Shown: positions 162-32,640, numbered from the stretch's first letter. The stretch is DNA of 45,637 bases from Christensenella sp. UBA3798 (GCA_002368735.1 DFEQ01000006.1:1-45637), one strand, 5' to 3'. Notes: a model not told the origin generated them from the letters alone. Made by a program: numbers and translations.

Positions 162-179
162 CTAAGTCGTGTATTAATG

Positions 180-262: not shown

Positions 263-291
263 TTGATATACGATGCGGAACGTGATATAAT
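263..291 (+). promoter_or_regulatory. Sigma-70/SigA-type promoter with extended -10, placed for a leaderless or near-leaderless transcript
   Basis: TTGATA (263-268), a 17-nt spacer, then TGATATAAT (283-291, i.e. TGn + TATAAT). The ATG at 299 lies 7 nt after the -10 element and no SD-like purine run lies between them. Confidence 0.55.
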
Positions 292-298
292 ATCCTCT

Positions 299-1141: not shown

Positions 1142-1155
1142 CGCGTTTACGATAA

Positions 1156-1191
1156 GGGGCTCTCTTCCGAGCGAAGGGGGCCCCTTTTTTT
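1156..1191 (+). terminator. Strong rho-independent terminator after the small lipoprotein gene
   Basis: GGGGCTCTCTTC (1156-1167) pairs with GAAGGGGGCCCC (1173-1184), 12 bp including 2 G-U pairs, around the loop CGAGC. T7 follows at 1185-1191. It starts 15 nt after the stop codon. Confidence 0.8.
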
Positions 1192-1248
1192 ATTTATGTT
1201 TACGCCTATAGGGGCGCATGGAAAATTTATAAGAAAACTTAATAAATA

Positions 1249-1277
1249 TTGACTTCTTCGTGCGTACGCATTAGAAT
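1249..1277 (+). promoter_or_regulatory. Sigma-70/SigA-type promoter of the giant-gene operon
   Basis: TTGACT (1249-1254), a 17-nt spacer, then TAGAAT (1272-1277). An A/T-rich UP-like stretch (ATAAGAAAACTTAATAAATA) lies immediately upstream. The predicted 5' UTR is roughly 55 nt. Confidence 0.6.
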
Positions 1278-1329
1278 ATACCTGTGTTTTTACCTGCGCG
1301 CTATATACGCGTGAGAAAGATGCGGTCTT

Positions 1330-1335
1330 GGAGGA
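1330..1335 (+). promoter_or_regulatory. Shine-Dalgarno site for the giant ORF
   Basis: GGAGGA at 1330-1335, then ATT, then ATG at 1339. Confidence 0.6.
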
Positions 1336-1338
1336 ATT

Positions 1339-1416
1339 ATGACAAAAAATCTTCACACGAAAATTCTGCTTATACTACTGCTTTGCTTCGTGGTCGTGCT
1401 CGTCGCCTTTGCCTGT
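1339..1416 (+). other. Lipoprotein-type signal peptide with AFAC lipobox (Cys26)
   Basis: Basic n-region (K3, H6, K8), a 15-residue hydrophobic core, then V-A-F-A-C with TGT at 1414-1416. This fits the permissive PROSITE-style lipobox pattern. The same AFAC, and the same 11-mer GCCTTTGCCTG, are found in the gene at 299. Confidence 0.6.
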
Positions 1417-4400
1417 GCGCCGAAGTCGTCCACGATCCTCACCGATCCCGATCCGTCGGGAGGGGGAGGCTCCGGCACGTCGGAGACGCGTATAGACGTT
1501 ACGGGAGGTGAGAAGTCGGATTCTTCGGTATCCGAGTTCTTTACATATCTCAAAAAAGCGCTTGCCGTAGACGACGCGAGCGACGCAGTGGCGTTTAAGT
1601 TCGTGACCGAGGACATGACCGTAGTGAAGAGCGAGAAGTCCGTCGATCAGAACGGCAATGAAGTATCCACCCCCAAGACCTTCGATATGTACGCCGAACT
1701 CGCCTGCAAATATGACCGCAGGGACGACTCCAATACCGAATTGCTCTTTGAGCTGCATTCTTCTCTTACGCGCGAGCTCGTGTTTGGCTTCTATTACTAT
1801 ACGGGCGTATTTTACTTGAATATCCCCAACGATGAGGGCGGTGCCGCTACCATCTATATGGACGAGTTCAGCCTGGACGACGTCGTGACCATCCTCGCTA
1901 GCTCGGGCGCCACGGTGTCGGATATCTATAGCGCCGTGATGACCGCCAACGTGCCGATGATCGACGTGAGCGCTATCATCTCGTCTATGCTCAGCGCCGC
2001 GGTCAAGGAGGTCACCAAGACCGAGAAGGATGGCGCCACGCAAATCGTCTTGAAGACCGATTTCAACGCTTCGATCAATGCCTTGCTTGATAAACTCAAA
2101 AGTTTTGACCGAGCCTTGAAGGAGCTCAATATTCGCAGTGCTCTGGAGACCGTGTTCGGCATGTCCTTCACCTCTCTCGTCAATTACAAGTTTGACCAGT
2201 TCACCTGCGACGTGACTTTGAACATCCTGGACGGCAAACTCCTCAGCGTACAGCCCACCCTCGGCTACGGCGGGAAGTTTGCTATGGACCTCTTGATAGA
2301 CAACGTCTACTACGGCGACGACACCAACGCGGTGGGGACCATCGCCTTCCCCGAATTTAACGATTACAGGAAGTTCGGCGTGACCAACCTCGAATTCACC
2401 ATGCACCTCGACCTGGAGAACGCATCGGAAAAGAGCGTTACGATGGATAGCCTGCTCGGCGGCTTCTTCCGCGAGTACTTCGGGCTGACCTCCATGGGCG
2501 CTTTCGGCGAGAGGGTGCTCACTCTCGGCAAGGGCACCATCGGGCTCAACCTCGACGTCAACGCCGAGATCGATTGGAACAAGAACGAAAGGAATTACAT
2601 AGAGATCGAGGTCTTCGAAAGGCTCACTTCGGGCGACAAGCGCCTCGGCACTATCTACTACGTGGGCTCCAAGAGTGCCTTGTACGTGGACTTCTCCGAG
2701 TGCAAACTGCCTAAGTTCGTCTACGAAGGATTGAACCTCGCATCCGTCATCAAACGTTTCGTCGTGGAGACAGTCTCCTCCATGCTCGGCACCGCGGAGG
2801 AAAGCAGCGCCGCGGGCGAAGAGATGCGCGAGGTCATCATCGAGGCGTTTGCTCCGGGCGGCAGTTACCAAGACGCGCTTTCCGCCATCGTGAGAAACGG
2901 CACCTACGAAACAGTCGCCGAAGCAGGCGACGGCGAATACGTCGATCTCACGCTGGACGTCGTCGCTTTGATAAAAAAGCTCGCCAATGCCGTGGCGAAC
3001 AATCTCGAAATGCGCCCCGAGGGCAAGCGTGCGATCGCGCTCACCGTGGATCGTTCGCTCGTTATGGACGTTGTGGGGCACCTTGCCGCGAAGGCAAAGG
3101 AAGGCTTGGATACGGCTGTCAAGAAGCAAACAGAAGCCGCCTCGAACGACGATGAGCTCAAGGAATACGTGTCTACCATCTCCACGCTCGAAGCGGAGAA
3201 ATCTTCGCAAGAAGAAGCGCTCCGAGCCGCTCGCTTGGAGCTGGAAAACGCGAGCAACATGGCGGCGGAGAGAAGGGCGCAGGCGAAGATCGACAACATC
3301 GAAAACGTCCTGCTTCCCAATATCAACATGCAGCTGGAGTATTATCAAAAGCTTTATGACGAGCGCATACAGGCTTTCTCCTCCGACGTGGACGCCGCAC
3401 GCAATAACTTCTATATCTTCGCCTCTCTCTACGACGGGCTAAAGGATAAGTCTTTGACGAGCGGCGACGTCGCTATCCGGAGTATCCGCGTCGAACTGGG
3501 GCTCCTCTCGGTCGGATACGGCATCTACGCCGACGTGGACGTCAAGCTCGCGGAAGACACCCATCTGAAACTGTCGGTGGACCAAGTCTCCATCGGCTAC
3601 GCGCCCGTATTCAACGTGCCCAAGGAGAATTTCGACCCACAAGGCTATTCCACCTTGGAGGAGTTCTCCTCCGTTTCCCTGTCCGCCACCATCGCCCTCG
3701 CGGGTGACAGCGGCTCGCTGAAGGAGCTGAACCTCGGCGACGCGCTCGGCGGCATGATCGGCGAGCTGACCTGCCTCCTCGGCGTAAAGACGGCGAATGA
3801 CGTCGCGCTGTCGGGCGGGATGGATATCAAGGTGGACGCCAACTTGAACTTTGACCCCATCAGCATCTCCGACTATCTGAACGGCGACAACACCAAGCTC
3901 AAACTGAACTCTATCGATCTGGCCGTCAACGTGTACAAGCGTCCCAACGCCACCACCCCCGCCTTGACCGAAGCCAACCGTATGCTCAGCGTGTGGTATT
4001 CGGGCGAGGAGGGCGCTATCTTTGTGGATGCGACGGGCGTATCCATCAGCGATGACGGTGCGACCATCCCCCGCTTTATGTACCGTATGCGCCTCGAAGA
4101 CCTCTTTGCGGGCTCGATCGCCGCGGAGAGCGATATTCCCGCGACCCTTCCCGCCGCCGCTTCGAGCGATTTGTCTATGGAGCAGATCATGGAAGTGGTG
4201 GGCGGAATGTTCGGCGGACTGTACCTCGGCGACGAGATATCGGTCCTGCTTGCGGATAAGCTCATCGCCACCACCCTTTCCATGGTGATGAACGGCAAGA
4301 ATTCGGACAGCGTCATCGACCTCGACTCCTCCAGCAAGGTGTATATCCGCACCGAAGGCGGGCTGGAGATCGGCGCGCATATCGGCTTTGACACCAAGAC

Positions 4401-7400
4401 GTCTGAGGATACCGTCGGATACGTTGACCCCTATATCGAACTGCACGTCGGCGACATCTCCGCCTCGCTCGTCAGGAGGGATATCATTCCCGAAAACGTC
4501 CTCGTGGGCGCCAAGAAGACCTATCCCGACATCACCGAGTTCGACACCGTCTATACGCAGTTTGAGATAGACCTCGGCTACCGCTTTATCAACAACGATT
4601 ACGACTTTACCGACCTCATGGAGGCTTTGTCCGATATGCTCGGCGAGTCTTCTGTCGGCAACCTTTTGGCAAATACCGCGCTGAGCCTCAGCGTCAAAGA
4701 GGAGTTGTTCGGTCATTTCCGCGCGCGTATCAGCGCCAATATGGACTTCTCGGACGGCTTTGAGTTCACCGCGAGGATAGAGCTTTTGAAGGATAACGAC
4801 GTCCTTGCGACCCTCTACTACGAGGGGCTGTACCTCTACGTGGATGCCAGCGGTCTGACCCGCCTTGCTTCGGACGGCGGTCTGAGCGGTCTCAATATTC
4901 CCAAATTCCGCATCCGCGTGTCTAAGCTCGAGTGCGGCTGTACCTGTCCCGACTGCTTGAACGAAGCGTCCTGCGACCACGGCACGAAATGTCTGCCCGG
5001 TTGCGGCTGTGACTGCCACGAAAGCGTCTCCGCTGCGGAGGAGATCTCGGCGGGTAGCTTTATCGGTCTGTTGGATCGCATCGATTTGACAGAGGAAGGC
5101 ATCGCCGTCAAACTTGCGCGCGATAGCTTGTCGAGGGTCTTGACGATCCTCAGCTTTGACGAACTGGGCGAAGCCTTGCCCCATCTGACGCCCTCTTTGA
5201 AGGTGAAGCTCGCGGGCGGCATCGGCATCGGGGCTACCATCGCCTTCGACGACGCGGGTGACAACTATATCGACATCGACATCGGCAAGTTCGGCGTCAA
5301 GTTCGGCAAGGAGAGCCTCGGACTCGTCAAGAGCGAATATCGCGACCTCGACTTTACCATCCTCGATAACGTCTCGGCGGAAGTGTCGGGTCGTATGACC
5401 CTGAATATCGATGCGGGCGCGGCGAATGAAGACGCCGCCGTTGCCGCCGTCGTCAAAGCCCTCGTCAAAGAGGTGGGCTTCGGCGTGCAGGTGGAAAGCG
5501 CCCTCAAGTGGGACCTCTCCTTTGACCTCAAGGCGAACGTCGACCTTTCGCAAGTGGACTTCAACGACGATTCCACCTTTGCCAATATGATCCCGGGTGC
5601 GGAGATATACTTTGCGCTCTACAACAATAACGGCGCGTCGCGAAAGCTGATGCTCCTCATGTATTTTGACGGCAGGACCAAGGACGTGAGCGGCGCTACG
5701 CAGCCCACCGTCTATTTGACCGCTCCCTGGCTCGGCGTGGGCAAGGTCGCTTATAAAGTGGATATCAACGCCCTATCGCAAGACGACGTCTCCGCGGCGG
5801 AGACGGAGGGTGTGGGCGCAGCCGATATCCTCGGCAAGTTCGCCGACCTCATCTTGGACGAAGGGGGCATCGGCGTGGTCTTTACGGGCGAACTGCTCGG
5901 CGAAGTGCTCAACCTCTTGGTGCTTGATGAAGATATCGACTTTGCTTCGATGATAGAGCAGGTAAAGCTCGGCATCGGACTCAACGACGGACTCAGCATC
6001 AACCTCGACGCCTTCCTGACCGGCGCCAAACTCTCCGCCGGCATCACGGGGCTCGGCTTCAATATCGGCGAGAGTATCGACCTCGAAGACCTCGTCTTTG
6101 ACACCGACGACCGCGAGACCGAATACGCGACCGTCGCGTCGGGTACCGACATCAAATTCAACAGTATTTCGGCGGGTATCACCGCTACCTTTGATATCAA
6201 GAGCGCAAGCTTTGAGAACTACGACGCCTCCGAGACCATGAAGAGCATCGTGGACCTCTTTGAACTGGAGGAGGAGGTCAGTTCGCTCGTAGAACAGCTC
6301 TCTCTGTACCTTTCTGCCGACCTGCCCGCGCGCGCTAACGACGCGGCTATGCTCTCGGCGGGCAAACTCATCGTGCGCTTTGACTTCAACTTCTTCGATA
6401 CTTTGGAGTTCGTTTTGCACATCACGACGGGGGATGGTGACGAAGTCGCCACCGTCATGTATCACGGCATAAACGACCTCATCAACGGCGAGGAAGACGT
6501 TCTCTATCTCGAATTGCCCATCATCGGCATCCCCAAGACCAAGGTGGTGGGAACGAAGATCTCCTCTTACGTGGCGAGCTTGACCGAGACCGCCGTCGCT
6601 TCTCAGGAGGAACTCACGAAACTCCCGTGCGGTTGCAGTTGCGACGCGTGTTTGGCGGCGGGTACTTGCGGCAAGAGCGCCGGCAGCCTGACCTGCGCCA
6701 TCTCCTGCGATTGCACCTGCCATCTGCCCGACCTCGATTGCGGCTGTATGAACCCCGCCTGTAAGATCGCGGGCAGCTGCTATCACACCGACGAGACTCT
6801 CGGGGAAGAGGTGCCCAACGAAGGTTGCACCTGTCCCATACATAACGGTGTCACCATCATCGACCGCTTGAACGAGATCGTCGATCACGTGGTGCTGGAC
6901 GGCTCCACGGGTCTCATCGGCGTGGTGACTAAGGGCAACGCCCTCGCGACCATTGCTTCCATGCTCTCGTTGAAAATAGTCCTGCCCGAGCTGGTGATGA
7001 GCGCCAAAGTCAACGTGCGCGATCTCGGCGCGGTGGTGGGCATCACGGGCTTCGAGGACGAAGAGGTCACCTTTGACCTCGCGGTGGACGTGGGCGACCT
7101 CTTGATAGAATTCAAGAAGCGCGACCTCATCTCGGGGACGGAGGCGTACCAAGATTGGCGCACCTTGCAGTTCGGCTTTATGCTCGACGCGGACGTCGCC
7201 TTCAAGATGGACGGCACCTACGCGGAGTATCTGACCGACTATATCTCGGAGAACGTTGCGGGCGAATCCATGAAGGTCGTCGTGGGCAACAATACCACCG
7301 AGGACAAGGTGGAAGTCGCGCTCGGATTGGAAGTTGCGGCAAACGTCGCTTTGGACTACGACGATACCGTCAAGAACTTTGTGCATCCCGGGGTGGAACT

Positions 7401-10400
7401 GTGGCTCTCCTTCTATGCCAAGACGGGGGAGGACGAGCTGTACGACAGGACGTCCAGCCTGATCTCCATCTACTATAATTCGAGCGAAGTGACCGACGGC
7501 GCCTCTCACGAAGTGCTCTATTTTGCGGGCGCGGCGTACGGCGCGGAAAGTGCGGTCAAGATAACCGATATCGGCGTGTACGACCTCGTGATGGAGCTCT
7601 TGCTCCCGATGATACCGAGGGCGGGCATCGTTTCCGCGGCGGAAGCGGACGACGCGGAGGCGCAAGCGGTCGGCGGATTGCTCTCGGGCATCCTCGGACT
7701 TACCGTCACGCGCGAAGACGGGCTCTTGATCTCGGCGGACGGCGGCGCTTTGAAACTGGCGCTTTCCTTGCTGAATAAGGAGCTTGGGGATATCTTCCCC
7801 GCGACCGAAGGCGTGCGCGTGGCGTTTGGCGAGGAGGGTCTCAGCGCAAAACTCGTATTCAACGAAGCGTCTATGCTCACCGTAGAGGTCGCCGACGCGG
7901 ATATCTTCTTCAACAAGTCCTTTGTCGAGTTTGAGCCGATGAGGGATAAGATAGCGGGAGAAAACGGCATCACCGTGGGCGCTGCTCCGATGTCTGCCGA
8001 TGACGCATTCCACCTCTCCGGCAAGTTCAGCGTGGAGGCGGAAACGGGCGTGACCGTGGATGAGAGCGGCAACCCCATCGACGAATTCTTCGGCTCTACC
8101 GAAGGCGGCTATTTGGGCGCGTTGAAGTTCCTCTTGCGCTCCGACGCCGAGAATAAAGTCAACTATACCGTGGAAGCGGACGTTTCGGTCTACGGACTGA
8201 AACTCGACGAAATGAAGCTGAATGCCTTTGACCTTCCGTCGGTCATGGCGCTCGTGGGCAAGGCGCTCGCCGGCGTAAAGGCGGAGGCGACCGTCGTGGT
8301 CAGGGATAACAACGCGGACGACGAAGTCATCTTCGCCATCTACTACACCTTTGATGAGATCGACAGTATGTACGTCGTCGTGCCCGCCTTCGATCTGCGC
8401 CTCAGGGTGGAGGAGGTTCTCCCGCTGAAGTCTCTGCTTGCAAGCATCGTGAGCGACAGGGTGGATTCGGGCGAGACCGCCGCTTCCGAGGCGGTGGAAA
8501 GCGCCGCTGTCGGCGGCTTCCAAGCCAAAGATATATTTAAGCTGGTGGACAAGATAGCGCTCTCCAACGAGGCGCTCACCATCGACCTCTCCGAGCAGAT
8601 ACTCTCAAGGTTGCTCCTGATGGAAGGCATCGAGATAACCCTTCCCGAAGTGAGGACCACCCTCACCCTCGGTCAACTTGTCGCCGCGACGGGCGGGGTG
8701 GATCAGGGCTTGTCCGTCAAGGTGATATCCTCCTTGATACCGCAGTTCAATGCGGAGATTCGCTTGGGCGACTTTGACATCACGCTTGAGAAGGGCTCTT
8801 TGGACCTCTTGGCGCCGCACGCCGCGGTCTTCGGCAGGATGGATACCTACTCCACCCTCGACTCGTTGCAGGCGAAAGTGGAGTTCGAAGCGGACCTGTA
8901 TTACGGCTTCGGCGAGAACCAGACCAACTCCGACGGCAACGCGTGGGCGTTTGAGAAGCTCCTCGAAGACATCGACCTCAACTTGAATATCGGCATCATC
9001 GACCAGCTGAAAGGACACTACAAACTCACCGTCAGCGCGACCGCGAACGTGGCGGAAGGGGCGGACAGCCTGTACGGCTTGGAGATATATATCGTGCTCT
9101 ACTCCGTCAGCAAGGACGGCGAGGATAACGACGTTTACGCCAAGCAATTCAGCGTCTATTACGGCAAGGGCGTGCTCGGCTTGAACTTCTACGACCTCCT
9201 CGGCGTAGAGCCCTTCGAGCTTGAGCTTGACCTCGGCTCCATGATATCGGGCGCCGGATCTTCGGCGGAGCAAGAGGACGCGGGCGAAGAGGCGCAAAGC
9301 GTCACCAAGAAGCTCGAGGGCTTTATCTCCGAGCTTTCGGGCATCATCAAACTCTACGTTAAAGAGAAGTCCGCCGTCTTGGAGCTCAGCGGCAACGTTT
9401 TGCACACCGCGCTCGTCGCTCTTGGTTACGACAACTATTTCCCCATCACGGCAGAGGGGGTCACGAACCTCAATACCGCCGCGATGAACGGGCTTACGGA
9501 GGGCGACTACACCGTCGTCTTGACCTACGATGGTCTGACGAGCGAGTCCGAGTCCTTTACCTATCATCACGCCTATCGTCGCGACCTTTACGACCTCAGG
9601 GCGCTCAATCTGACGGGCGGTGACGTCTATGCCATCGGCTATCAGGGCGAGGGCGTCAGCGGCGTATTCTACAGCGAGGCGAAGTGGAGCGACCTCTTCG
9701 ACCTCGATCTGAAGGCGCAGACCATCACCTGGGTCTCTGCGGATAAGCACAGCGAGCTCTTTGAGAGCTTGCCGCTCGGCGAATACGAGATAACCATCAT
9801 CAAGACGGGCGGCAGGGCAAGCGCCGGCTTCAAGATGGAGAAGAGGCTCTCTTCCTATACCTCCAAGGACGGCTTGCACCTGACGGGACGCACAGTTTCC
9901 ATGATAGAGATAAAGAGGGACGGCGTCACCCTCCATACCCTTGTCCCCACCGAGGTCGAGCTCACGCCGGGCAAGGAGCTTATCGGCGATTACTTTGCCA
10001 TCAATGCTTACGGCGGTCTCCTTGATCTGGAGCTCGGCACGGAGGGCATCCTTGCCAAGGTACGCCTCAAGGACGACACCTATCTCAACCTTTCCATCAC
10101 CGACCTCGATATCGATATGTCGGGCGGCACCGTGGATAGGATAGATAAGAACGGCGAGGCAGAGCAGTATACCTCCAATATCCGCTCGCTCTACTTCGAC
10201 TTCTCGGTAGACCTCTCGGTGAATACGAGCAAGGGGTATAAGCTGGATGTCGACGAATCCATCGGCAACCTCCTCGACAACGTGCTCGGCGGCATCTTTG
10301 AGGGACGCGATATCAACTTCTATTCCGAAAAAGACTCCGAACTCACCTACACCCTCGACGTGCAGGCAAACGTCAAGCTTGCGGGCAAAGCCATCGACCT

Positions 10401-13400
10401 TGCCCACAGCGAACTTGCCGTCACCGTGAAAGAGGGCACGAGGGAGATATTGACCGTATACTACGTGGGCACGCAGGGCGCTAACGGCGTTTTGTATATC
10501 GCCATCCCCTATTTTGATTTGAGGCTCAAGGTGGACGAAGTGGACTTCGTCTCCAAGATACGCTCCCTCCTCGGCGAGAACAGCGTTTCTGCGGCAGAGG
10601 AGGACGACGCGGAGAGCGGTCCCTCCGTCACCAAGATGATCGCCTCGATGCTGCTTGGCGTCAACGTGTACGACGCCTATCTCGACACAGCGGTCGAGCA
10701 CGGCGAGAGTCGCTTCTACGGCATGCAGGCGCTCTTTGCCAAGAAGGCTTTGAACGTGCTGTTGGAGCTTGCGGGCTTTAGCGGCTTTACCCTTCCCGAG
10801 CTGGAAGAAGGGGACGAAACCTCCTATCTCAAGCTGTATATCGACAAGGCGGAGGATAAGCTCCTCGAGGCGCGCCTTGCCTTTGACATTTCCAAGGCGA
10901 CCTCTATGACCTTGACCGTCTATCAGCCCAAAGTGCAGCTCAACGGCAAGATGCGTTACGACAATAATCTCGGCACCTTTATGAGTATCAGCGAGGCGGG
11001 CTCCTTGACCTTGGGTCTCTCGGCGAGCTTTATCCTCGACAACGACAAGGATAACAATATCGACGTGGCGTCCATCGTCAATATGCTCGTGGAGGACGCG
11101 CACGCGGATAAACTCATCGTCAAGACGGAGGCGTCCACCGCCATCTATACCTTCAAGGTCTCCTTGAACTTCTCTTTGCAGGGCGTGACCGAGAGCCTCC
11201 TCGGGGAAGAGGGCGGTATGAGCGTCAATCAGATGCTCCGCTCCATGCTCAAGAACCTCTACGCCCACATCACTCTCGACCGCACCCTCGAAGGTGTGGA
11301 CGACAGACTTGTGGAGGCGTATTTCTACAACAGCTGTTTGTACCTCGACCTCTCCTCCATCGGTATGCCCAAGGCGGCTATCCCCATGGATATCTCCGCC
11401 CTCATTCCCGCGGACGAAGAGCCCGCCGCGGCGGAGCAAGAGAGCCCCTTGGTGTGCGGTTGTTTGAACCCCGACTGCATAGCGCACGCCGATAGTCATC
11501 CCGACGCCACCCATCCCTGCCGCAACGGCATCGGCGGGATGTACGACGGATGCGAGTGCCGCTACTGCGACCCCGACCCCGATCCCAAGTTTGTGGAAGC
11601 CTTCAACGTCTTCTACACTTCGCGCGGTATCCTCGCAAAGATGGAGACCGAGCTCTTCGCCGCCACCTTACAGGCGCTCGGCATCAAGGCGACCTTGGAC
11701 GTCAGCCTCAACGCGCGCTTGAGCCTGGACGACGGTTTATCCGCTACGGCGGTCTTCTACGGCGTGGATAAGGACGGCGAGAAGGCGCACACCTCCGTCA
11801 CCCTCTCGGTGGCCAAGCCCACCGTGGTCCTCGGCGGCGTCATCGAAGAGATGATAGAGGATACCTCCGACTACGGCTATCTGAACGACCTCAGAAACGT
11901 CAACGTCGATTTCACGATAGAGATCGACACCGCGCTCAACGGTTCTTCCGTTGCGGGGCGTTACTTGATCGACGGCTTTATCGCAGACCTCTTCCGCTAC
12001 GGAGCGGGCGATAAGCAGTCCGAGCTCCCCGTCAACTTGATGCACGATATCAAGGGCAAGATCAGCATCCACGTAGCCGCCAATATCGACTTTGCGGACG
12101 TCAATCGCTCCGAGATACTCCTTCAGGTGTATCATCGTCGCGAGGGCGAGGCTGCGGAAGAATGGATCACCGTCTTCTACGGCGGAGCATACGACCTCAT
12201 CGTATGCCTCCCCATCGTGGACGAAGCATTCAATATGACCTTTAACGTCAATCTCGCCAAGTTCCTCGGGGACGACACCGCAAAGATGATCCGCGATCTG
12301 CCCACCACCTTGTCCGACCTCATCTATGGGGCGCTGGGTTCGGAGGCAGGCGCCGTGGCGGCGGCGGAAGGGAGCACGCCCGATTCGATGCTCGGTTTGG
12401 CATTCTCCGCTATCCAAAACATCGGCTTCCAAGCGGCGGGCAAGATAACGGTGAATGCGGCGCGCACGGTCGTGGAGGACTTCTCCGAGTATATGCTCGG
12501 CAGCATCGTCACCCTTGGCGATATGCAGTACTTCGAGGTGTTCGCCGACCTTCTCAGCCGTGAGATAGGTCTCAAAGCGGGCATCAAGAATAACGCCGAA
12601 GGGCCCACCAATACCTTCGCGCTTACCTTGAAGGACTATTCCTTCTCGCTGGTGAAGAAGGACCTTGAATTCGATAAGACGCAGTATAATACGCTCGAAG
12701 ACTACGAATTCCTTTACGTCAAGGCGTCGGGCAAGATCGATTACGACCTGCCGGACGGCGTCTACGACATCGGCGGACTCATCAGGAGCATCGCCGAAGG
12801 GGTGGAGATCCCCGTCACCTTCGAGGGCCTCACCGGCGAGTTCGAGGTAGTCGTCCAGATGAATATCTGCGTGGAGGAGCTCAAACGCAGCGAGCTGCGC
12901 GTGGACGTTATCTGGAACGATAACTACGTGCTCCAAGCGTATATGGACGTCCTGCGTCAGGAGATATATATCTCGATGCCGTGGTTCGACGTGCAGAAGT
13001 TCCTGATAAAGGGCGTGGATACCTCCTTCCTCTTTGACCTCTTGCCTTCGGCTAAGGGCGACGAGGTGAGCGAGGCGGCAGGCTCCTTGGGCTTTGACCT
13101 TGCTTCTTCCGCCGCGGCGAAGTACGTGACTTTGCTCGGCAAGGTGGTGGACGGCATCTTGATAACCAACGACGAGTCTTCGAGGGGCTTGACGATGACC
13201 ATCAACAGCAACTTCGTCGAGACCTTGCTCTCCGAATTCGCCTCTTCCTTGAAACTCGAATTACCCATCGCTTTCGATACTTCTTTCATCAGTGTGGAGA
13301 GGAACACGCTGGACTTCACCTTTAACCTCAAGAACCCCTATCACGCCGCGTCCGCAAGCGCGCCCGTAGGGTATATCAAGGGAAAGCTCGCCTTGGAGAA

Positions 13401-16400
13401 TTGCGGCTTTACCAACGTCAATATCCGTCCCGATAATACCCAAAACGTGACGGAATTCACCCCCCTCCTCGACTACGAAGAGGACGACCCGCTGATACTT
13501 GAGAATATCAGCGTGAAGACGGAGCTCTTCTTCGACGCGCACCTCCTTGAGCAGCAGCTCAACATGAACGACCTCATGATGTACATCTTCGGCGACGGCT
13601 TTGACCTCAAGACCGAGAAGGTGGACGCCATCTTCCGCTTGGAAGTGCAGGGCACCTTCAACATTCGTCGTATCGCAAGGAGCGAACTCTTGGTCAATCT
13701 GTATATGAATTCGCCCGATCCCGCTCAGCCCGGCAAGTATATCGAAAGGCTCTTTATCCGCGGCTACTACGTGGGTCTTGACCAGGCGGTTTATATCGAC
13801 GCGCCCCTCCTCGGCTTGTACGGTATCAAGGCTACCGGTCTGAACCTCGAGTCCCTGATAGGCGGCGCTTCCTCGGGCGAAGAGTCGGGCGAGAGCCTGA
13901 CCGAGCTCGACTGTGGCTGCAAGTGCGCTTCGTGCTTGGATGGCGGCAAGTGTTACGGGCTGGTGGACGGCGTATTGACACGCCTCTGCGCCTCCGACTG
14001 CACCTGCTCGCATTGCCAAGTGCCGGGATGCACCTGCCGCAACGCGGTGTGCGTGGCTACCGGCAGTTGCTACGACGAAGGCGGCGTCAAGCGTTGCGCT
14101 TCCGAGTGCGGTTGCCACTTGCTTTCTTGCGGATGCGATAACGAGGAATGCTTCTTTAACCGCGGTTGCGTGGGCGCTATCAAGCATTGCGAAGAAGATT
14201 GTCTGTGCTCTTGCTGCACGGTGCCTTCCTGCCACTGCACAAACGTTGAATGTGTGGAAAACGGCAGTTGCTACCGCGCGGACGGCAGTAAAATATGCGC
14301 TCTCGATTGCGCTTGTTCCTGCTCCGTTTTGAAGTGCGGCTGCTCCGACGTCGATTGTCAGGCGAGGGGTACTTGCTACGTTGACGGATCGCGTACCTGC
14401 GACGGCAAGGAATGCTCTTGCGCCTGCACCGCGCTTTCGGACGGCTGTAACTGCAAGACCTGCGCCGATAAGGGCGGATGCGTCGCCCAGGACGGCTCTG
14501 TCCGTTGCGAGAAAGGCTGCACCTGCGAGCATTGCACCTTGCCGTGCGGTTGCACAGACCCCTACTGCGTGGCGGCGGGCGGCTGTGGCTTGAACGGTAT
14601 GTACTGCACGGATAACTGCACTTGCACCTGCCATGGGATAGCGCCTTGCGATTGCAATAATCCCGAGTGCGTGGAGAAGGGTTGTATCGTTTCTTATAGG
14701 AACGCCTATAAGGTACAAGCGAGCGGCGCCAAGGCTTATTACGACATTGCGCGCAAAGTTTATTACCTCGCGGAGAATGCGGACGTGATCGTGGACGAAG
14801 ATGCCCTCGTCATCGAAACGGCAACCTCCCGACCCAAGGTGGTCGCCATCGACGCCATCCACAGAGAGGGCTGCGACCTTGATAAATGCACCTGCTATAC
14901 CGATACCTATCGGTTCAATTGCTTCTGCAAGGACCCCGTGTGTATCAAGAACGGCAAGTGCGTCAAGTGCTATCGCTTGATAAAGGACGAGAAGGGCAAC
15001 GACAAGGTCATATCCATCTGCTATTGCGATAAGAATTTCGTCAAGAAAATCGAAGGTCTCAAAGCCGCGGAGGTCACTTCCGTCGTGTTTAAGAACGGCG
15101 AAACTCCCGTTGCCACTTTGCCGAGCAAGGCGGAGTGGAGCGCTTATATGACCATTGTGGACGGTCTCGTATCTCTGAACGACGCCAATGACAACATCCT
15201 TGCCCTCGAAGGCTACAAGTGGACGGTGTACGTCGAAACGACCTCGGGTACCTATGACTTTGAGTATAAGCTTGGCAGCGGTCCCGTCACGAACGACTCC
15301 TGCAAGTGCCATTACAACGTGCTCGCCTGCTTCTGCACTGATCCGGAGCATATCCGCAGCGGCGTCTGTCCCGGGGACTGCGAATACTGCAACGGCGATT
15401 GCCACAAGTATCGTAGCGACAAGTACGCAGAGGCGTTCGCACAGATGAAGATAACGCCGGCGGGCATCTCTTTCCGCACGACCAACAGCTTCCTCTCCAC
15501 CATCTTCTACGTCTTCTCGGGCAATACCATCAGCAACGTGGACGTGCCGCGCATCAGCGTGGACTTCGCGCTCAACTATATCACGAGGCGCGCCGTGTTT
15601 GACCTTGAAAACGTCAACCAAAGCAGCGTCAAGAAGGTGGTCTTCCAAGGCAAGCACGAGATCGGCGGTCTGTACGAGTCGCTGACCTTGACCACGGCGG
15701 AGGAGATCGCCTCCTATATGGAGATAGGGGAGGGCACCGTCACCTTCTACGATTCCAACGTCAACCTCGGCGAGCTGAAGGACTACGCCTGGTTCGTCAC
15801 CTTCTACGGCGACCTTGACCAAAATCTCGGCACGGTGGATTACGCGATGTACACGGGCGAAACGCAGGGCTTCCTTTCGCATCTCGCCTTGCGCGCGGAC
15901 GTGGTGGTCGAACAATATAAGGACGGCGCGTACACGGGCGAGGAATCCACCTTCGGCGTGTCCTTCGGAGGCATCGAGCTGACGAGCGGCAAGAGCACCT
16001 TTACCATCCTTGACGCGCAGGGAAGGACTGACCCCGTATCGGGCGATCCTCTCCCCGCCGACTTCGCGACCTATCAGACCTTTGAAAAACTGCAAAAGAT
16101 AACGGTGCAGACCGACCTCCACATCGAGATCCATCCCGAGGATACTAACGTTGAGCTCGGGCCCATGCTCAATACCTTGTTCCCCGGTATCGATACCTTG
16201 ATGCAGATCATCGTGGATACTGCAGATTGGACGGAGAATACCGAGATAACCTTTGCGGTGCAAGTCGCCCTCGACCTCAACGACCTTGAGAAGACCCAGC
16301 TCATGCTCACCGTCACCGAGACGAGAGCCATTGGGGATAAACTGCTCGCCTTTATCTACTACGACGGCGAGGCGGCGACCCCCACCTTATATATCAATCT

Positions 16401-19400
16401 GCCCATCCTCGGCGTGCAGGGCACTTACTTTGAGAACGTCACCATCTTTGACTTCTACACCGAGGCGCAGCCCGCTTTGGATTGCGGTTGCGGCGAGGAC
16501 AAGAAGTGCAAGAACGTGCTGTGTATCGATAACGGCTCCTGCTACGACGAATACGGCGTCAGGATATGCGACGGCGAGACCTGCGGCTGTGACTGCGCCT
16601 ACTTCAGTTGCGGCTGCAACTGCGGCGACTGCGTCAAAGCCGACGCTTGCGACGGAACGAAGTGCGGCGCAGGCTGCACCTGCTCGCACCACAGCGTGGC
16701 GGCGGCGGACGATGAGACGGCTCTCGTGTGCGGTTGCACCCGGGCTGACTGCATCGCTTACGGCAGTTGCGGTCCCGATTGCACCTATGACTGCGACGGC
16801 AGTTGCCACTACGTCACCACCAGCGCCACACCGCTTCTCTGCGGTTGTACCGACCCCATCTGCTTGATGCGCGGCAGCTGCTACGAGGCGTGTAAGAACT
16901 GCAAGAACGGCAGATGCCACGACAAGGAGAACGCCGCCCTCTTATTCCACAGCGGGCTCTCGGTCTCCGATCGTATTTACGGCTATCTGTCGCACGTTAT
17001 CAGCCTGACGGTTTCCGACGCGGCGGGCTTCCAGATAGAGGCGGAACCCTCCTTGATCACCACCCTTCTCGTGGCGCTCGGCAGGGACGTGGATATCAGC
17101 GCTCTGGACGGCGTGGGCTCTATCCTCGTGGGCTTCAAGGTGGATGCCAACAGCGATATCGCCATCAACGCGCAGGTGGATCTCGGCGACACAGGCGCGC
17201 ACCTCAGATTGACGGCGGATAACATTAAGATAGACCTCAATAAGAACCTGCTCGAAGTGCCCTCGACGGAGGTCGTTGGCTCCTTGCAGAACTATACGAG
17301 GATGAACCTCAAGAGCTATGTGAATATCTCGCTCTCGGGCGAACTCAACATCACCACCCAACAGGCGGTCCTCGACCTCGGCAGGACGGTATCCGCCGTC
17401 CTCGGCGCGCAGAGCGAGTTTGAGCTCTCCTTCGAGGATGGTCCCGTCAGCCTGGGCTATACCATCGCGGCGAACGTGTCTTTGGAGTCGGTGGATATCA
17501 CGGGACTTATCGCGGGCAAGACCTTTGACGCCAAGAAGGTGCTGGAAACCGGCGAGGCTCTCGTGGAGATCATCGACCTCAAGCACAATAAGACCTTCCT
17601 CTCCATCTATCTGAAAGACGGCGTCGCCTACGTCGACCTCGGCATCTTGGCGAGTGCGCCGCCCATGAAGATAGACCTTGCGAACCTCATCAAGTTCACC
17701 GAAGAGGACTACGTCAGTACGGCGGAAGGGGAGGAAAAGAAGGACAGCGTCTACGACGTATCCTATACCCTCGACCTTCCCGAAGTGGTCACTATCGGCA
17801 AGATGTACCACTACGTGGGCGGCTCTTCGCCCGAATTCCTCGTGGCTTTGAAGGGCTACGAAGTGACGAGCGCCATCATCGTGAACGATGCGACGGGCGT
17901 CAAGACCACCATTGCGGACAAGGATGCTCTCGCCAAATACTTCACCTTTGAATACGCGGCGAATAACGCCAACCACCGCTACGTCAACACCATCCTCTCG
18001 ATGGCGGCGACCAAGGAGGTCAGGGAGCTTGCCAGGGACGGCGAGAACTACTACACCGTCTATCTCATCACCGAGGGCGGCGTGGCTTCCTTCTCGCTCA
18101 AGGTAGCTACGGCAGACGCATACGTCACGGGCGGCGACCGCACCATGGCGCTTGTGGCGGGTATGCTGGGCAACGTCACCTTCAAGTTTGACGAATTCAT
18201 GGTGGGCTTGAATAAGAACCTGATGAAGATATTGGAGGAATACCTCGGCATCAGCCTCAACGCGCCCGCAGTGGACGCGGCGATGTTCTTCGGCAAGAAG
18301 GACGCGGAGACCGTCTATATCGGCGCGACCATCGGACTGAAGAACGGCGAAGGCAAGGGCGTCGACGTCGACTTCCGCCTCGGCAACTTCAAGATCGGCA
18401 TCGGCAAGGCGTACCTCTTGGACGAACTTGACGTCAATAATGATTTGATGCGCACGCACGTGACCCTCGTGGACGGGCATAACGAGATCGTTGAGGGGGC
18501 ATACAGCGATATCGAGAGCATCGATACCGCCTACGCTTCTCTTACGGCGGAAGTGACTTTTGCCGCTTCGGGCGACGCCTCTGTCCCCGCAGACCGTAAC
18601 AGCAAGATATTCGACCCCGACGGCGCGGTCTTCACCTTTGGCGATACCTTCCGCGACGCCATCGGCAACGTGCTTGTCAACCTCGGCATCGACAAGTCGC
18701 TGAACGGCACCTATCGCGTGACCTTGAAGGGCTACTTGAAGACTCTCGACTTTGAGATGCTGGGTCTTTCCGACATCGAGGCATACCTCAAGGTGGAGGA
18801 GAAGACGGGCGAAAGCACCTACGGCGAGATATTCACCATCTATTACGCCGACAACTATATCTATCTGAACTTCAACCCCGAGCGCTTCCCCTACATGACC
18901 CTTCCGGCGACCTGTATCAGGCTGGATTCCGCATTGGATTACTGGACGGGCAAGGATGAGGAAGTCGAGGTATCCGCCGCGGAGAGCGACCTTTCGATCG
19001 CATCCTTCGTCCGCTTGATAGGCGGGGCAACGGTGGGCAACGGCATCATCGCCTTGCACCTCAGCGAAAACTTCGTGGGCGGCATCCTTGAACTCGTCAG
19101 CCCCGAATTCAACAATATCTCTCTCCTCATCGACGAGACCAACGTCGCGTTGGACGTCATGCAGGGCGAGATATCCTTCGACCTCAAGACGAGCGGCGAA
19201 TTTAAGCCCGCGGACTACGTCATCTACGGCAGGGACAGCTATGCCAAGGCGGAGAAGGTTTCGAACGATGAAGCGTATATCGCGGTGTATAACAGCGGCG
19301 CCTTCAAGGGTATGGAGGGCGACTATCTCCTCTGCGCCGGCGTGGGCGGCGGAGAAGTGGAAATACCCTTCAACGTCAGCGACCTCAAGCGCGAATACCT

Positions 19401-22400
19401 CTTTACCGACGAAAACGTCTGGAACGTGATGCTCACGGTGGAGGACGGTAGGTTCGCCATCCCGTCGGGTAAGTTCGAGGCGGGCTCCTATCACGTCGTA
19501 TTCACGATGACGGACGGCACGAATGTCACGACGAAAGCGGGCGACGCCATCGCGGGCGGTGCATACGTGGAGCTTGTGGGGCTCGTCGCGGCAAACGTCA
19601 CGTCGGTCAAGGTCACCATGAACTATCTGCGCCTGCCCATCGACGCATCCGGCCTCTCCGGGGCGAACGGATCCTTCACCACCCTCACTTCTCTCACCTT
19701 TAAACAGGTGGAGGCTTCCAAGGTGTCCGGTGGCTTGGAGCTTGCCGACTTTGCAAAAGCGGGCGGGGCGAATGCCGTCACTATCAAGAAAGCGGCGGTC
19801 GGTGCCCTCGGCGGTGAGCATTACTACGCTTACTTCTTCGCCGACGGTGCTCTCGCCGTGGAGAAGGCGTGGCTCTCGGTGAGCGATGACACCACGATAG
19901 AGCTCTCGCATATCTCGATGGATAACTTGCGCAAGATCGTCTTCGTGCGCGACTATTCGGATGAAACGGAGGCTCCCGAATTCGATTCCTACGCCATCCT
20001 GTCCGCGACAGACGAGGCTATCTTCCTCGACTACAAGGGCAACGTGTATACCAACTACACCGCGCAGCAGAGCTTTGATATGTCCTTCACCGTTAGGGAC
20101 CTGGTCTTCGCCGTCGCGCAGCCCGACGTCGGTCTGTATCAAAAGAATAAGGAAACCACCTATTCCTATAACTATTCGACGGGCGCCGTAACTGCGACCG
20201 CGGGGCTCGACCTGGCGAATTACGCGAATTGGCAGGAGCAGGTCTTCTATCTGGCGACCTCTCTTGAGATCTCCGCCGACTTCGCCACGACCGGCGAGGA
20301 GCTTGCGGGCGGCTATGAACTCTTCGGCAACGACAGCGTGGGTCTCGGCTCGGTCATCGACCAGGTCATCGGCATCCTCAGAATGCAGGAAGGACTGAAC
20401 GAAGTCATCACCTTGAAGGTGGAGATTAAGATATTCGCGGAGGACCCCTACCTGTCCGAGGCGCTCTTTACCTTCTCCGTCAAGACGACCGATAAGTACG
20501 GCGCTGACCCGCAGACGGTCAATAAGCCCTCCATCACCGTTTACTATAAGGGTATGGGCGAGGGCAATAAGAGCTATCTGTATATCGACGCCTCGCGCTA
20601 CTTCCTCGGCAACTTTAAGGTAGAGGCAGATATCGTCACACCCATCCTCGACCTGTTTGACATCGGCTCGAAAAACGACAACTACTCCTCCCTCGACCAA
20701 GAGGTATTGCTGTGCGGTTGTACAAACCCCGAGTGCGTCCTCTACGGTTGCATCAAGGCGGAGAACGGCAGATACGTCGTGCGTTGTAAGGGTACGGGCT
20801 GCACCTGTAAGCATTGCGTGCTCTCCTGCGGTTGCGTGGATGAAAAGTGCCTTTTGAACGGCGGCTGCTACGACGCGGACGGCGTAAGAATATGCGACGG
20901 CGAGACCTGCTCGTGTGATTGCAGCCTCTTGGAATGCGGCTGTACCAACCCCGGCTGTATCGAGCATAAGAGCTGCTACGATGAGGAAGGCAACTTGATG
21001 TGTTTGGTGTGTAACAGCGTCTATTGCCAGCTTGCGGGTCGCTGCTTGTTCGACGACGATTGCGAATTCAGAGAGCAAGGTTACCGCGACCCCTGTACCT
21101 GCTCGCACTGCCGTTTGAAGTGCGGCTGTACCGACAAAGCCTGTTTGGATAACCACAGCTGTTATCGTGACGGCGTACTCCTTTGCGACGCGAATTGCGA
21201 TTGCGACTGCTCCGATAACGCCGTTATCGTCGAGCCCGAGAAGGAGTCGGTTCCTTTCTCCAAGTATCTGCCCTATATGGACAATATCCTCTCCGCGGTG
21301 CAGATAGGCAATAAGATGAGCACCATCGTCTTGAACCCCAACGTCTTCAATAACATATTGCTGATGCTTGGCTATAAGACCTACCTCTGCGATGAGAACC
21401 TCGCCTATATCCGCGCCGAAGTGCACGCCACGACGGCGGAGGGTATGAAGGATACCTTCATCAAGATAGCCGCTAAGAAGGACGACGTATACGACGTCTC
21501 TGTAAAGCTCACGGGCTTCAAGGCGCAGGCGGTGGTCAAGAAGGACGCTACGCAGTTTGCGAGCTTTACCTCTGCATATAACTTTGCTTCGAGCGTGCCG
21601 AACTATGAAAGCTACCCGCTCGTTGAGGAGATGGAGCTGCACTTCGCCACCACCGTCGATATTTCGCTTTCGGGCGGCACCGAAACTCTGCCCATCGGGC
21701 TCAACGACCTCTTGGGTTCCATGCTCGGCTTGGAGGCGGAAGACGTCGCCACCCTCACGGTGGATAACGGCACGGTGCAGACGGGGCTTGACCTCCGCAT
21801 CCATATGGAGATGTTCCTCAACCTGCAGCACAGCAGGCAGACCGAGCTCCTCCTCGAGATATCGCAGGTCAATAAGGCTACGGGTGCGACCACCTTGTCC
21901 CTCGGCGTATACTATCTCAACGCGGAGGAAACCGCATACGTAACCTTGCCTGTCTTCGGACTGTCGGGTCTAAAGATAACGGGGCTCGACCTCTCCGACA
22001 TCCTTGCCAACGTCTTTGAGATAAGGTTGTGGAGCGATATCCGCAACGGCACGAGAGAGAGTGCTTCGGCGGCGGAAGAGGAGACCTCCATCAAGAACGC
22101 CCTGTGGCAACTCATGGGTATGGACCTCGGCGACGACGAGTCCCTCCCCAACGTGATACTCGACTATATCCGCGCTATCAACGAGAGCGGCGAAGAGTAT
22201 GAAGAAAAGTACGACCATAAAGCCAAGTTCGTGCTCTCTATGGGGAATTCCAAGGCGGGCGTCGGCTTGAACCTCTCCTTCATCATGCTCCTGATGGATA
22301 TGCTCAAGGTGGACCTCCCCTCGCAGCTCGTATCCATCTTTGAGACCTATCCGGGCGGCTTCACCGCCGAGGCGTATTACGACGGTGCAGACAACGCCTC

Positions 22401-25400
22401 CTTGACGGGCTGGTCTATCGGCGCCAATATCTACTTCAAGAAGAACGAGGCATCCGAGCGCGACGAGATCGGCACGAGCGCGGACAATAAAGAGTGGATG
22501 GGCTTGACCCTCAAGATACACGACCTCGAAGCCTTCGTGGGTGAAAATGAGAGTTTGACCCGTTATGCGCGCACCGACGCCGAAAAGAGCGCCGTCATCG
22601 TGATGCCCGACGCCGTGAAAGCGTCGGAAAACGACGCCAAGGCGAACTATAAGTTCACGCCCAAGCGTTACAGAGGCTACGCCAACACTAATTACGATAC
22701 CTATAAGTCTCTCACGCGTTACAGCAATATCATGGAGATAGACGTCCTGAACGTCAACCTCGTGGGCGAGATGGTCTTTGACCTCAAGAATCAGACGGAT
22801 TCCGAGTACAAGTCCAATCAGACCTTGAAGTTCTTCAACGCCTTGATAGAGGAGATGCTCGGCTTGGAAGCGGGCTCCTTCAACGTGGTGCGTCACGTGG
22901 AGAATACCTGGACCTTCACCGTCAACTTGGATCTCAACTTGAACTTTGAGGACTTCTCCAAGACCCAGCTGAAATTCCAGCTCATCATGAACGACGGCAT
23001 CAGTAGCGACCTCACGCTGGCGGCGATCTATTACGACGGCGCCTCCCTTAGCGAGGACGGCGGTAAGCTGTATCTCGACGTGGCGGACCTCGGCCTCATC
23101 AAGGTGCGCGCCACCGGCGTAAACCTCGAGCAGGCGCTCTCGCAGGTCCTCGACGTGGACCTCTCGAGCGGCAACCTCTCTATCTTGAAGGACGCCTTTG
23201 GCGTGCAGTCTCTCGGCGAACTTATCACCAATAAAATAAAGGAGAGCAAGAACGTCACCGCGCAGGAAGAAAACGAGCAAGAAGAGGAGGAAACCGCGGG
23301 CGCGGCGTCCATCGATTACGCCGCCGACCTCAAGATCGTCCTCGAAGCGCTCGCCTTGCAGGGTAGGACGCAGACCCCCTACAAGCTCAGCATGAAGGTC
23401 AACGGCGCCCTCATCGAGCGCTTGGTCGGTGCCTTCGGCTGGGATGAGAACATCGTGGGCAAGGCGATGGAGCGCGTGGGACTCCCTGAGGACTTCTCGG
23501 CGACTATCGGCTTTACGCTTGACGAAGGACTGAAGGATATCGGCGTCGATATCGTCGCCCCCGACACCTTGTCCGGCGGCGGCTCGAGGAGTAACGACAT
23601 CTCGGTCAAGCTGACCACGTTCAAGTACGACTATACCTCTTCGGCGGAGTCGATGTTTGCGGCAAATCAGTTCGACGATTACAGCGCCCTCCCGATGGGC
23701 GGCTCTATCGGACTCGCCAACCACAACGGCGAGAGCTGGGTCGGCATGCTCGTGGAGAGCGTATTGAACGGCTTGTATCCGCCCGCTGCGTCAGTCGATT
23801 CGGGCGGCAATGAGACTTTGACGGCGGACGCCTTACGCGTAAAGCTCACCCATAATACCCACTATACCGACAAGAACGCCGTCCTCGTCACCGATCAAAA
23901 GAGGAATATCGTCATTCAACTCTCGCGTGACGACTCCGAGGGCAAGTTCCCGCACTCTTTGAGGGGCACGGTATTCGACGTTATGACCGACTTTACCGAA
24001 ACCCCCGGTCTTACCGACATCGCTCAGAACGCCGTGGAGATCTACAGCGAAAACTACTTAGCCATCGCCGACCTTTTGAAGAACATCGCACAAATGTTTG
24101 TCGGACACATCGACAGGATATCGGTCTACTACGTGGACGGCAATCTCAAGTTGCGCGTCGGCTTTAAGATCTCCATCTTCGGCTTGTCGTTATTGACTTG
24201 GGACGAGAATGACGGACTGGACTTCACCTTTAACGTCTATCACATGGATATCTCCGATATGATGTCGGGCAAGGCGAAGAAGAGCAAATACGACGAACCC
24301 GATGAGATCAAGAGCGATGGTGACGACGACGAGACCATTACCCTCGAAGATATCGAAGCAGCCAAGGAGCATCCCGTCACCAAGGTGACGCTTAACCTCG
24401 GCTACGGGCACATAGACGATACGACGGGCACGACGATGGAGAAGTCCAAGCAGGACACCGCGGAAGGACTCGCAGGTGAAAATCCCGCGACTGTCAGCAA
24501 CCTGCGCATTGACTTTGACGCGCTCGTGATCAGAGAGCTCACGCAGATGCTCAACTCCGCGGCGCTCAGCCTCGGCAAATCGCATAGTACCGTCGCGTCG
24601 CGCGCAACCTACGGCACCTATCAGATGATGCTCGGCATGATAAAAGACGCCATCAAAGGACTCATCAAAAAGCTCGGCGATAACACCGTGGTCAATGCGC
24701 TCGCCAGCGTAGCGGGTTCGGCTGCGGCGGCGCTTGCCGATAATGTTCTCGGCGACCAGGTCATCCACTTGCTGGCAAAACTCCTCCCCTTCGTGGAACC
24801 CGCCAAGGGCGACAGCTGCTACTTGATGGTGGAATTCGATACCAACAATAAGGGAAGCGGCAAAGTGCTTATCCGTAAAGCCCTCTTCCGCGCCTGCAAC
24901 GCCAAGACGGGCGAGTATTCGCAGATCGTGCTCACCAACGCGGGCATCCGCCTCGGCGTGGTGGACGAAACGCGCGTGACGATAGAGTTCAACGGCAAGA
25001 CCGAGCGCACCTTGACCGACGTCTTCAATGTCGACCTCGACGGCAACGGCGTGGCGGATTATCTGCAAGACCTGCCCAAGGAGGCGTCCGTCTACTATAA
25101 GCCCGGCACCACCAATGCGGACGACAAGCCCGACGACGTCAACATCGTCTGGACGGACAGCACCTTCGTCATCGACCCGACGGGCGGCGTCACCACCCCC
25201 ATCGCGAGACCCAAGGACGGCAGTGATAAGATAGCCACCAGCTACAATATCATCGGCACTATCCTCAATTACAATAAGTACGTGCCGCTCAACGTGCCGT
25301 ACAGCGCAGTGCGCCTTGTCAAATACGCCACGGTCGCGGGCGAGACCACGCCGCTTATCAAGGGCGAGCATATCGAACTGCCCATGCGCATCACCCCCGA

Positions 25401-32532: not shown

Positions 32533-32640
32533 ATGACTGTAACACAAAGACGGACAAAATGGAAGGCAGGACTCATCATCGCACTGGCGGCGATAATCTT
32601 GTTGACGCTGCTTGCGGTGTCGCTTTCGATAGCGACCGAC
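32533..32640 (+). other. N-terminal signal anchor or uncleaved signal peptide
   Basis: A basic n-region (RRTKWK) is followed by a ~23-residue hydrophobic stretch, AGLIIALAAIILLTLLAVSLSIA. There is no lipobox Cys. Confidence 0.6.

Follow-up and report, generated by a model that had tools for sequence, protein, structure and literature searches.

An apparently undescribed domain family, repeated in tandem behind a predicted lipoprotein signal in a giant protein of Christensenella sp. UBA3798

Giant adhesins, such as Ebh, SasG/Aap and the Big-domain SiiE, LapA and BapA, are acidic surface proteins of megadalton or near-megadalton size, in which tens of tandem, anciently duplicated stalk domains are found in the same chain with immunoglobulin-like (Ig-like) domains; their repeats are of the Ig, Rib, G5/E or helical-bundle type, and they are anchored by a C-terminal LPXTG motif or by a type 1 secretion retention module. 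Another group of very long proteins, the repeating beta-groove (RBG) proteins AsmA, TamB and VPS13, are anchored in the membrane by an N-terminal transmembrane (TM) helix, and are composed of a five-strand unit that is repeated into a continuous groove. A published survey of giant bacterial genes has recorded other giants from Clostridia, i.e. proteins of the RCC1, Listeria-Bacteroides repeat and dockerin types, and does not hold the family that is described below. Here, we present the analysis of a giant protein that is encoded by a 45,637-nucleotide stretch of DNA from Christensenella sp. UBA3798 (GCA_002368735.1 DFEQ01000006.1:1-45637), which we refer to as “the window”, and of a module that is repeated 21 times in this protein.

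The protein of the window shares the logic of the giant adhesins, and it carries an Ig-like array of the Big_4 type, but its stalk domain is about 250 amino acids (aa) long, is predicted to be alpha+beta and is unrelated to the Ig, Rib, G5/E and helical-bundle repeats; its anchor is a predicted N-terminal lipobox, and its linkers hold Cys-rich inserts. As far as the tools that we have used can see, the module represents a previously undescribed domain family, while the protein that contains it is of a familiar kind, i.e. a giant repetitive surface protein. The reading that we favour, with moderate confidence, is that, in a surface fibre or adhesin with a lipid anchor, this new, autonomous alpha+beta domain forms the stalk next to the membrane. 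Each copy, of approximately 230-260 residues, would start past an acidic Ala/Glu linker and would fold autonomously; the 21 domains would follow the lipoprotein signal like beads on a string and would account for three quarters of the acidic protein of 1.13 MDa, those nearest the membrane, in a stalk with a length of perhaps 100 nm (a rough estimate from the size of the domain). The Ig-like array would then be the distal quarter, presumably adhesive, that is held off the cell by the stalk, while Cys-rich units and small beta-rich domains, specific to the lineage, would have been grafted into the linkers. That the protein is located at the surface, is anchored by a lipid, is arranged as a rod or stalk and acts in adhesion is what we infer from its architecture.

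The giant protein is encoded in an uninterrupted frame and opens with the signal peptide that is listed here:

1339..32457, plus strand: giant open reading frame (ORF), uninterrupted, 10,372 aa, approximately 1,130 kDa, pI 4.4
1339..1416, plus strand: lipoprotein-type signal peptide (MTKNLHTKILLILLLCFVVVLVAFA-C26, ending in LVAFA before C26) at the N-terminus of the giant ORF

The signal peptide is the sole strongly hydrophobic, TM-like segment of the protein; it ends in a lipobox with the invariant Cys, and lipidation is predicted on this basis. Behind it, a conserved three-strand signature, YYxG...LYxD, is found 21 times, with its ends located at aa 163, 453, 899, 1171, 1463, 1727, 2065, 2349, 2618 and 3057 for the first ten copies, and at aa 3339, 3625, 3881, 4156, 5022, 5435, 5846, 6419, 6871, 7249 and 7608 for the last eleven. 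The basic spacing is 256-292 aa, in agreement with the original prediction, which had described a module of about 255-290 aa repeated about 21 times, and the larger spacings hold inserts. The three example strings that had been quoted for the signature are all present in the ORF, and the strand K..G.dL, which had been described as following the signature before a linker, is seen after nearly every copy, the linker being acidic and Ala/Glu-rich. The array occupies residues ~60-7608, i.e. about three quarters of the giant protein, and 19 of its 21 copies are complete. The range of 1789-24141 that had been assigned to it spans the first to the last signature; the whole array is wider, at about 1516-24162. 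In the following list, the periods have been cut at the ends of the signatures:

1516..1827, plus strand: module 1, partial; only its C-terminal signature half (aa 113-163) fits the profile
1828..2697, plus strand: module 2, from the profile and the signature ends
2698..4035, plus strand: module 3, with a coiled-coil-like insert at ~3106-3438
4036..4851, plus strand: module 4; AlphaFold2 was run on its domain, aa 946-1195 (4174-4923)
4852..5727, plus strand: module 5, with a Cys-rich unit in the leading linker (4933-5016)
5728..6519, plus strand: module 6, from the profile
6520..7533, plus strand: module 7, with Cys-rich units in the leading linker (6628-6834)
7534..8385, plus strand: module 8, from the profile
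8386..9192, plus strand: module 9, from the profile
9193..10509, plus strand: module 10, interrupted at ~9436-10008 by a small beta-rich insert
10510..11355, plus strand: module 11, from the profile
11356..12213, plus strand: module 12, with a Cys-rich unit in the leading linker (11455-11568)
12214..12981, plus strand: module 13, the most compact copy, 256 aa
12982..13806, plus strand: module 14, from the profile
13807..16404, plus strand: module 15, preceded by the largest insert, i.e. Cys-rich stretches at 13912-14685, 14872-15027 and 15301-15402 and duplicated small beta-rich domains
16405..17643, plus strand: module 16, with Cys-rich units at 16483-16917
17644..18876, plus strand: module 17, with a beta-rich insert at about aa 5470-5600
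18877..20595, plus strand: module 18, interrupted at aa ~5950-6200 by an insert of about 250 aa
20596..21951, plus strand: module 19, with Cys-rich units at 20713-21210
21952..23085, plus strand: module 20, from the profile
23086..24162, plus strand: module 21, degenerate; its N-terminal two thirds (aa 7300-7491) fit the profile and its signature is weak

The comparison of the copies with one another, and with their counterparts in other proteins, confirms that the module is a real, homologous and anciently duplicated unit. A hidden Markov model (HMM) built from 10 insert-free copies finds all nine of the copies that were held out (domain E from 1e-11 to 1e-2), with a shuffled sequence at E 0.05 and the neighbouring giant ORF at about 1 as controls, and a family-wide HMM picks up every one of the 21, even the first, which is partial (aa 113-163), and the last, which is degenerate (aa 7300-7491). 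A profile built only from distant relatives, holding no sequence of the window's lineage, aligns with single modules of the window over their full length (hhalign 97-98.5%, E from 1e-10 to 3e-15), and gives 0.1% against a shuffled control. Profiles or chunked BLAST are required for this purpose; single-module phmmer and self-BLAST of the whole protein detect almost nothing. The mean identity between paralogous copies is 15.7%, with a maximum of 25.6%, while copies at matching positions in orthologues are 52-77% identical in one protein (P0001) and 32-51% identical in another (P0004). At the level of the DNA, Tandem Repeats Finder reported no tandem repeat in the giant ORF, and a direct-repeat search found none within the modules themselves. 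The array is thus old, as had been proposed from the divergence of its copies, and a recent amplification is ruled out by the low identity of the paralogues together with the absence of DNA-level repeats in the modules.

In order to describe the fold, a single module (aa 946-1195) was modelled with AlphaFold2 from an alignment of 59 rows, i.e. 12 copies of the window and 47 from relatives, cut from linker to linker. The model has a predicted local distance difference test score (pLDDT) of 79.7 and a predicted template modelling score of 0.67, with values above 84 in the C-terminal half, and its secondary structure elements (H, helix; E, strand) follow the order H-E-E-H-E-E-E-E-H-H-E-E-E-E-H-E, with five helices. 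The module opens with a helix, a beta-hairpin and a second helix, which are succeeded by two short strands, two long strands and two helices; next come four strands, of which the last three make up the signature, and after one more short helix the K..G.dL strand closes the domain at the edge of the sheet. The strands of the model are long, at 10-16 residues. Mean-field direct-coupling analysis (DCA) of 301 aligned modules (effective number 297) gives, among its top couplings, the antiparallel ladders E6-E7, E7-E8, E8-E9 and E10-E11, recovers the meander E6-E7-E8-E9-E10-E11, places helices H2 and H3 in contact with the sheet, in agreement with the model, and couples the strand that follows the signature to the last signature strand of its own module, to which it therefore belongs. 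Taken together, the model and the co-variation indicate an alpha+beta module, in which five helices accompany a meander of antiparallel strands, rather than a solenoid. The idea of a long beta-solenoid, which had been raised from the sequence, is not supported by them: the module is not purely beta, and the beta-solenoid is rejected. The register that had been proposed, i.e. signature, K..G.dL strand and linker, is in accord with the modelling, where cutting from linker to linker raised the pLDDT from 45, in a run with 10 rows and a register that started after the signature, to 80, in the run that also had the larger alignment of 59 rows.

Our search for known relatives of the module is concerned with both sequence and structure. 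No Pfam family is matched at E<=0.1 over aa 1-7700, and the 59 single modules give, at E<=1, scattered one-off weak matches, with no family matched twice; NCBIfam yields no match for the module, and PDB sequence profiles none at E<=10. Foldseek with the model returns nothing at E<=0.001 from 350,542 PDB chains (best E 0.5, TM-score <=0.27), nor from BFVD; the best of the insignificant matches are to long curved antiparallel sheets, e.g. FadL, BamA and porins. The claim that the module cannot be assigned to any described family therefore stands in Pfam, NCBIfam, PDB sequence profiles and Foldseek (PDB and BFVD), and the family and fold comparisons that had been suggested as a check on it gave no known family in Pfam or Foldseek.

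The profile search of protein catalogues that had likewise been suggested, carried out exhaustively with HMMER on 1.84 billion representative proteins, yields 66 clusters at E<=1e-3 and 46 at E<=1e-10. Full-length members are 5,595-7,881 aa long and contain 10-18 modules each, and nearly all of those that start with Met and appear full-length open with a signal peptide and a lipobox Cys, in variants such as LIGC, VACG, LSCT and AACS. What characterises the family is a tandem array, behind a lipoprotein signal, of domains of about 230-260 aa, each of which has a full-length match to the profile and has YYxG..LYxD followed by K..G.dL at its end. The named relatives are “hypothetical protein” entries of metagenome-assembled genomes (MAGs) labelled Clostridia, Clostridiales or Eubacteriales; the family is tiny and appears to be confined to uncultured Clostridia/Eubacteriales. 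None of the giant relatives was returned by a word-indexed protein search, not even an orthologue of 3,340 aa with 65% identity, which the exhaustive search recovered, and in view of the 66 clusters, we do not read word-indexed negatives as absence for long or diverged proteins; scans of genome and metagenome contigs with pieces of the window gave no relatives.

The modules are separated by acidic, variable linkers, which accommodate inserts as short as about 30 aa and others longer than 500 aa, consisting of Cys-rich units and small beta-rich domains. The consensus linker of the family is Ala/Glu-rich, and at least 12 of the linkers between modules share a motif, V-S-A-A-E(E) (e.g. aa 1228-1236, 1480-1492, 2097-2110, 3079-3092, 5878-5885 and 6909-6916); this motif may serve as a processing site, or it may form a short helix or a spacer that is flexible. 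The Cys-rich unit is about 30-35 aa long, follows the pattern CGCxxxxCxxxGxCYxxxGxxxCxxxCxCxC(H) and is present in at least 13 copies, as counted by regular expression, in a protein with a total of 205 Cys; within the array, the clusters are located in inter-module linkers, and the last one (28555-28650) is located in the Ig-like array. These units are restricted to the close lineage of the window, where proteins contain 0.9-3.8% Cys, as compared with 0.1-0.3% in distant members; they have no match in Pfam and no meaningful match in the PDB, and they might be metal-binding, in view of the anaerobic host. Small beta-rich domains, to which no family has been assigned, occur in or between modules at ~9436-10008, ~14990-15890, ~17740-18140 and ~19190-19940; the pair at aa 4558-4630 and 4743-4820 is an internal duplicate with 29% identity. 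The insert of module 3 (3106-3438, aa ~590-700) is charged, heptad-like and coiled-coil-like.

After the array, a connector leads to repeats of a different kind:

24163..25413, plus strand: connector from the module array to the Ig-like array, about 400 aa, no family assigned
25414..31080, plus strand: C-terminal Ig-like (Big_4-type) array, at least 17 repeats of about 90-100 aa, aa 8026-9914, Pfam Big_4 at 5e-25

Only this C-terminal part (aa ~8026-9914) matches Big/Ig-like models (Big_4 or Big_3), and the 21 modules do not. Jackhmmer counts 17 Ig-like copies here and 2-15 copies in 12 relatives; the order of lipoprotein signal, modules and Ig-like array is common to distant members of the family.

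Several of these observations favour the stalk of autonomous domains. The autonomy of the domain is supported by the variable acidic linkers, by the tolerance of inserts and by the co-variation of the post-signature strand with its own module, and the variable acidic linkers with their large inserts favour autonomous domains over one continuous groove; the gene adjacent to the giant ORF, which encodes another giant membrane-anchored repeat protein, also counts in favour of the stalk. Other points weigh against it. There is no homologue of known function, so that the proposed function is drawn from the architecture alone, and a remote kinship to a weakly similar family, or to one that is represented by predictions only, may have escaped searches in which Foldseek covered the PDB and BFVD. 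The model covers a single module, and consecutive modules might form a continuous sheet in place of beads on a string. The strands, in our reading of the consensus and of the modelled copy, are strongly amphipathic and the best, insignificant Foldseek matches are long curved antiparallel sheets, with both of which a hydrophobic-ligand function would be compatible, and such a function may therefore be entertained. The monoderm envelope of the host is suggested by the Clostridia label of the relatives alone. Lastly, a distant relative (P0010, locus L002), placed in a Clostridia MAG, lacks conserved partner genes: the genes that are located 5' of it are unrelated housekeeping and glycan-degradation genes, and thus, no conserved operon is apparent.

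The modules could alternatively bind or transfer lipids or other hydrophobic molecules, each as a half-barrel carrier (of the LolA, TULIP or P116 type) or all together as a long groove (of the AsmA/TamB/VPS13 type), which we regard as unlikely. The window protein is, like the RBG proteins, very long and predicted to be anchored N-terminally, here through a lipid, at the membrane, with repeated long amphipathic antiparallel strands and helices: the strands of the model extend over 10-16 residues, hydrophobic and polar residues alternate along them in our reading of the consensus and of the modelled copy, helices H2 and H3 pack across the face of the sheet in the model and in the DCA, and the lipid channel FadL is found among the curved sheets of the top, insignificant Foldseek matches. 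Nevertheless, the module is a closed domain of about 250 aa, and its flexible acidic linkers, with inserts of up to hundreds of residues, are ill-suited to a continuous groove, in contrast with the five-strand unit of the RBG proteins; its anchor is a lipoprotein signal and not a TM helix, and its hosts are labelled Clostridia, where a second membrane to bridge may be absent. Clostridia are usually monoderm.

The comparisons with the RBG families also speak against such a device. The Pfam models AsmA, AsmA_2, TamB/DUF490 and Chorein_N have no match in the array (E<=0.1) or in 59 single modules (E<=1); a 443-module profile scored 0.17% (E 0.35) against TamB of E. coli K-12 in hhalign, the template being a single sequence, where true modules, as positive controls, scored 97-98.5%; and no RBG/TamB structure is found among the top 50 Foldseek matches shown. 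Membership of the AsmA/TamB family is rejected on these comparisons, and the resemblance that had been offered as speculation in the original prediction is not sustained by them, nor by the Foldseek search at E<=0.001. The LolA/LolB/LppX, TULIP/BPI and Mycoplasma P116 carriers are alpha+beta proteins, some of them lipoproteins, with helices that lie against the hydrophobic side of a curved sheet of antiparallel strands; the likeness of the module to them is limited to the composition of secondary structure, with no sequence match and no Foldseek match at E<=0.001 to a solved structure in the library that was searched, and they are one- or two-domain proteins, as opposed to an array of 21 copies. 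The PDB at large holds entries for TamB, VPS13/ATG2, LolA, LppX and P116, which were not checked against that library.

It is also unlikely that the modules are ligand binders, e.g. multivalent binders of polysaccharides or host glycans, with the signature hairpin acting in the manner of aromatic YG hairpins, and not passive spacers. The most conserved positions are indeed aromatic (YY, LY and the Y in “EYTDL”), and a paralogue identity of about 16% could reflect differing specificities; we take the signature to resemble a single YG or choline-binding hairpin. Pfam, however, gave no such match, neither to CW_binding_1 (PF01473) and related YG models nor to another repeat family, and a single YYxG hairpin is present per module of about 250 aa; moreover, the strands bearing the conserved aromatic residues co-vary as a hairpin, and this points to structure, not binding, as the role of these residues.

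A more far-reaching version of the lipid reading, which we hold to be a long shot, is that the module is a new fold, the 21 copies of which would associate edge-to-edge in the intact protein in a continuous amphipathic sheet or groove with a length in the range of 100 nm, i.e. a conduit for lipids or other hydrophobic molecules that would have evolved in Clostridia independently of AsmA/VPS13 and could span a thick wall or reach a partner or host cell.

It is very improbable that the giant protein is a polyprotein that is cut at the VSAAE linker motif to free its modules, singly or in groups, as subunits of a surface layer or matrix. SAAE-like motifs are present in at least 12 linkers, the consensus linker is Ala/Glu-rich, and S-A-A fits a signal-peptidase-like pattern by the -3/-1 small-residue rule; on the other hand, no protease gene is located nearby in the window, Ala/Glu-rich linkers are common as unprocessed spacers, the motif is not invariant in linkers that are of low complexity, and evidence of cleavage is absent.

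That the array is an artefact of misassembly, or a chance open frame with no real gene, is scarcely credible: the orthologue on a related metagenome contig (L001) is called as two ORFs (1997-7183 and 7180-17183; 1,728 and 3,340 aa), the first of which ends, frameshifted-looking, at the Cys-rich insert after module 6, but the frame of the window is open for 31 kb with promoter-like and ribosome-binding-site-like sequences before its start, colinear orthologues are 43-65% identical to the giant protein, the orthology holds module by module, and independent giant relatives are present in dozens of assemblies. The split in L001 could be a frameshift, an assembly error or genuine.

With the stalk as the favoured reading, the domain family, which has no counterpart in Pfam, NCBIfam or the PDB, builds some of the largest lipoproteins on record (5,600 to 10,400 aa) and, on uncultured Clostridia/Eubacteriales, is a concrete candidate for surface fibres of great length. 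With its profile, 66 protein clusters can now be annotated with about 440 further copies of the domain, and the confident single-domain model is open to experimental testing. Should the modules bind lipids or glycans, and not act as spacers, they would offer Gram-positive-type cells a novel means of surface presentation or transport over long range.

The window contains three genes on the same strand, i.e. a lipoprotein gene of 280 codons, the giant ORF and a second giant ORF; the remaining features, the signals among which are putative readings of the sequence, are the following:

299..1141, plus strand: upstream small lipoprotein, 280 aa (MKKTICTLLILLLVMGACVGAFAC…), without family match
1156-1184, upstream of the promoter-like site: terminator-like hairpin with T-run, putative
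1249..1277, plus strand: promoter-like site TTGACT-17 nt-TAGAAT, putative
1330-1334, before the start of the giant ORF: GGAGG, ribosome-binding-site-like
32533..45636, plus strand: second giant ORF, more than 4,368 aa, which leaves the window at its end

An exact look-up of the 280-aa lipoprotein gave no record; its gene is kept directly 5' of the orthologous giant gene in contig L001 (946-1767). The second giant ORF begins 75 nt past the stop of the first. Its product has a membrane anchor at the N-terminus and long repeats that are rich in Gly, and matches nothing in Pfam at E<=0.01 or among PDB sequences; its units, of about 600 aa, are rich in “G..GG.VG.N.G.I” and have a beta-helix or GLUG-type look.

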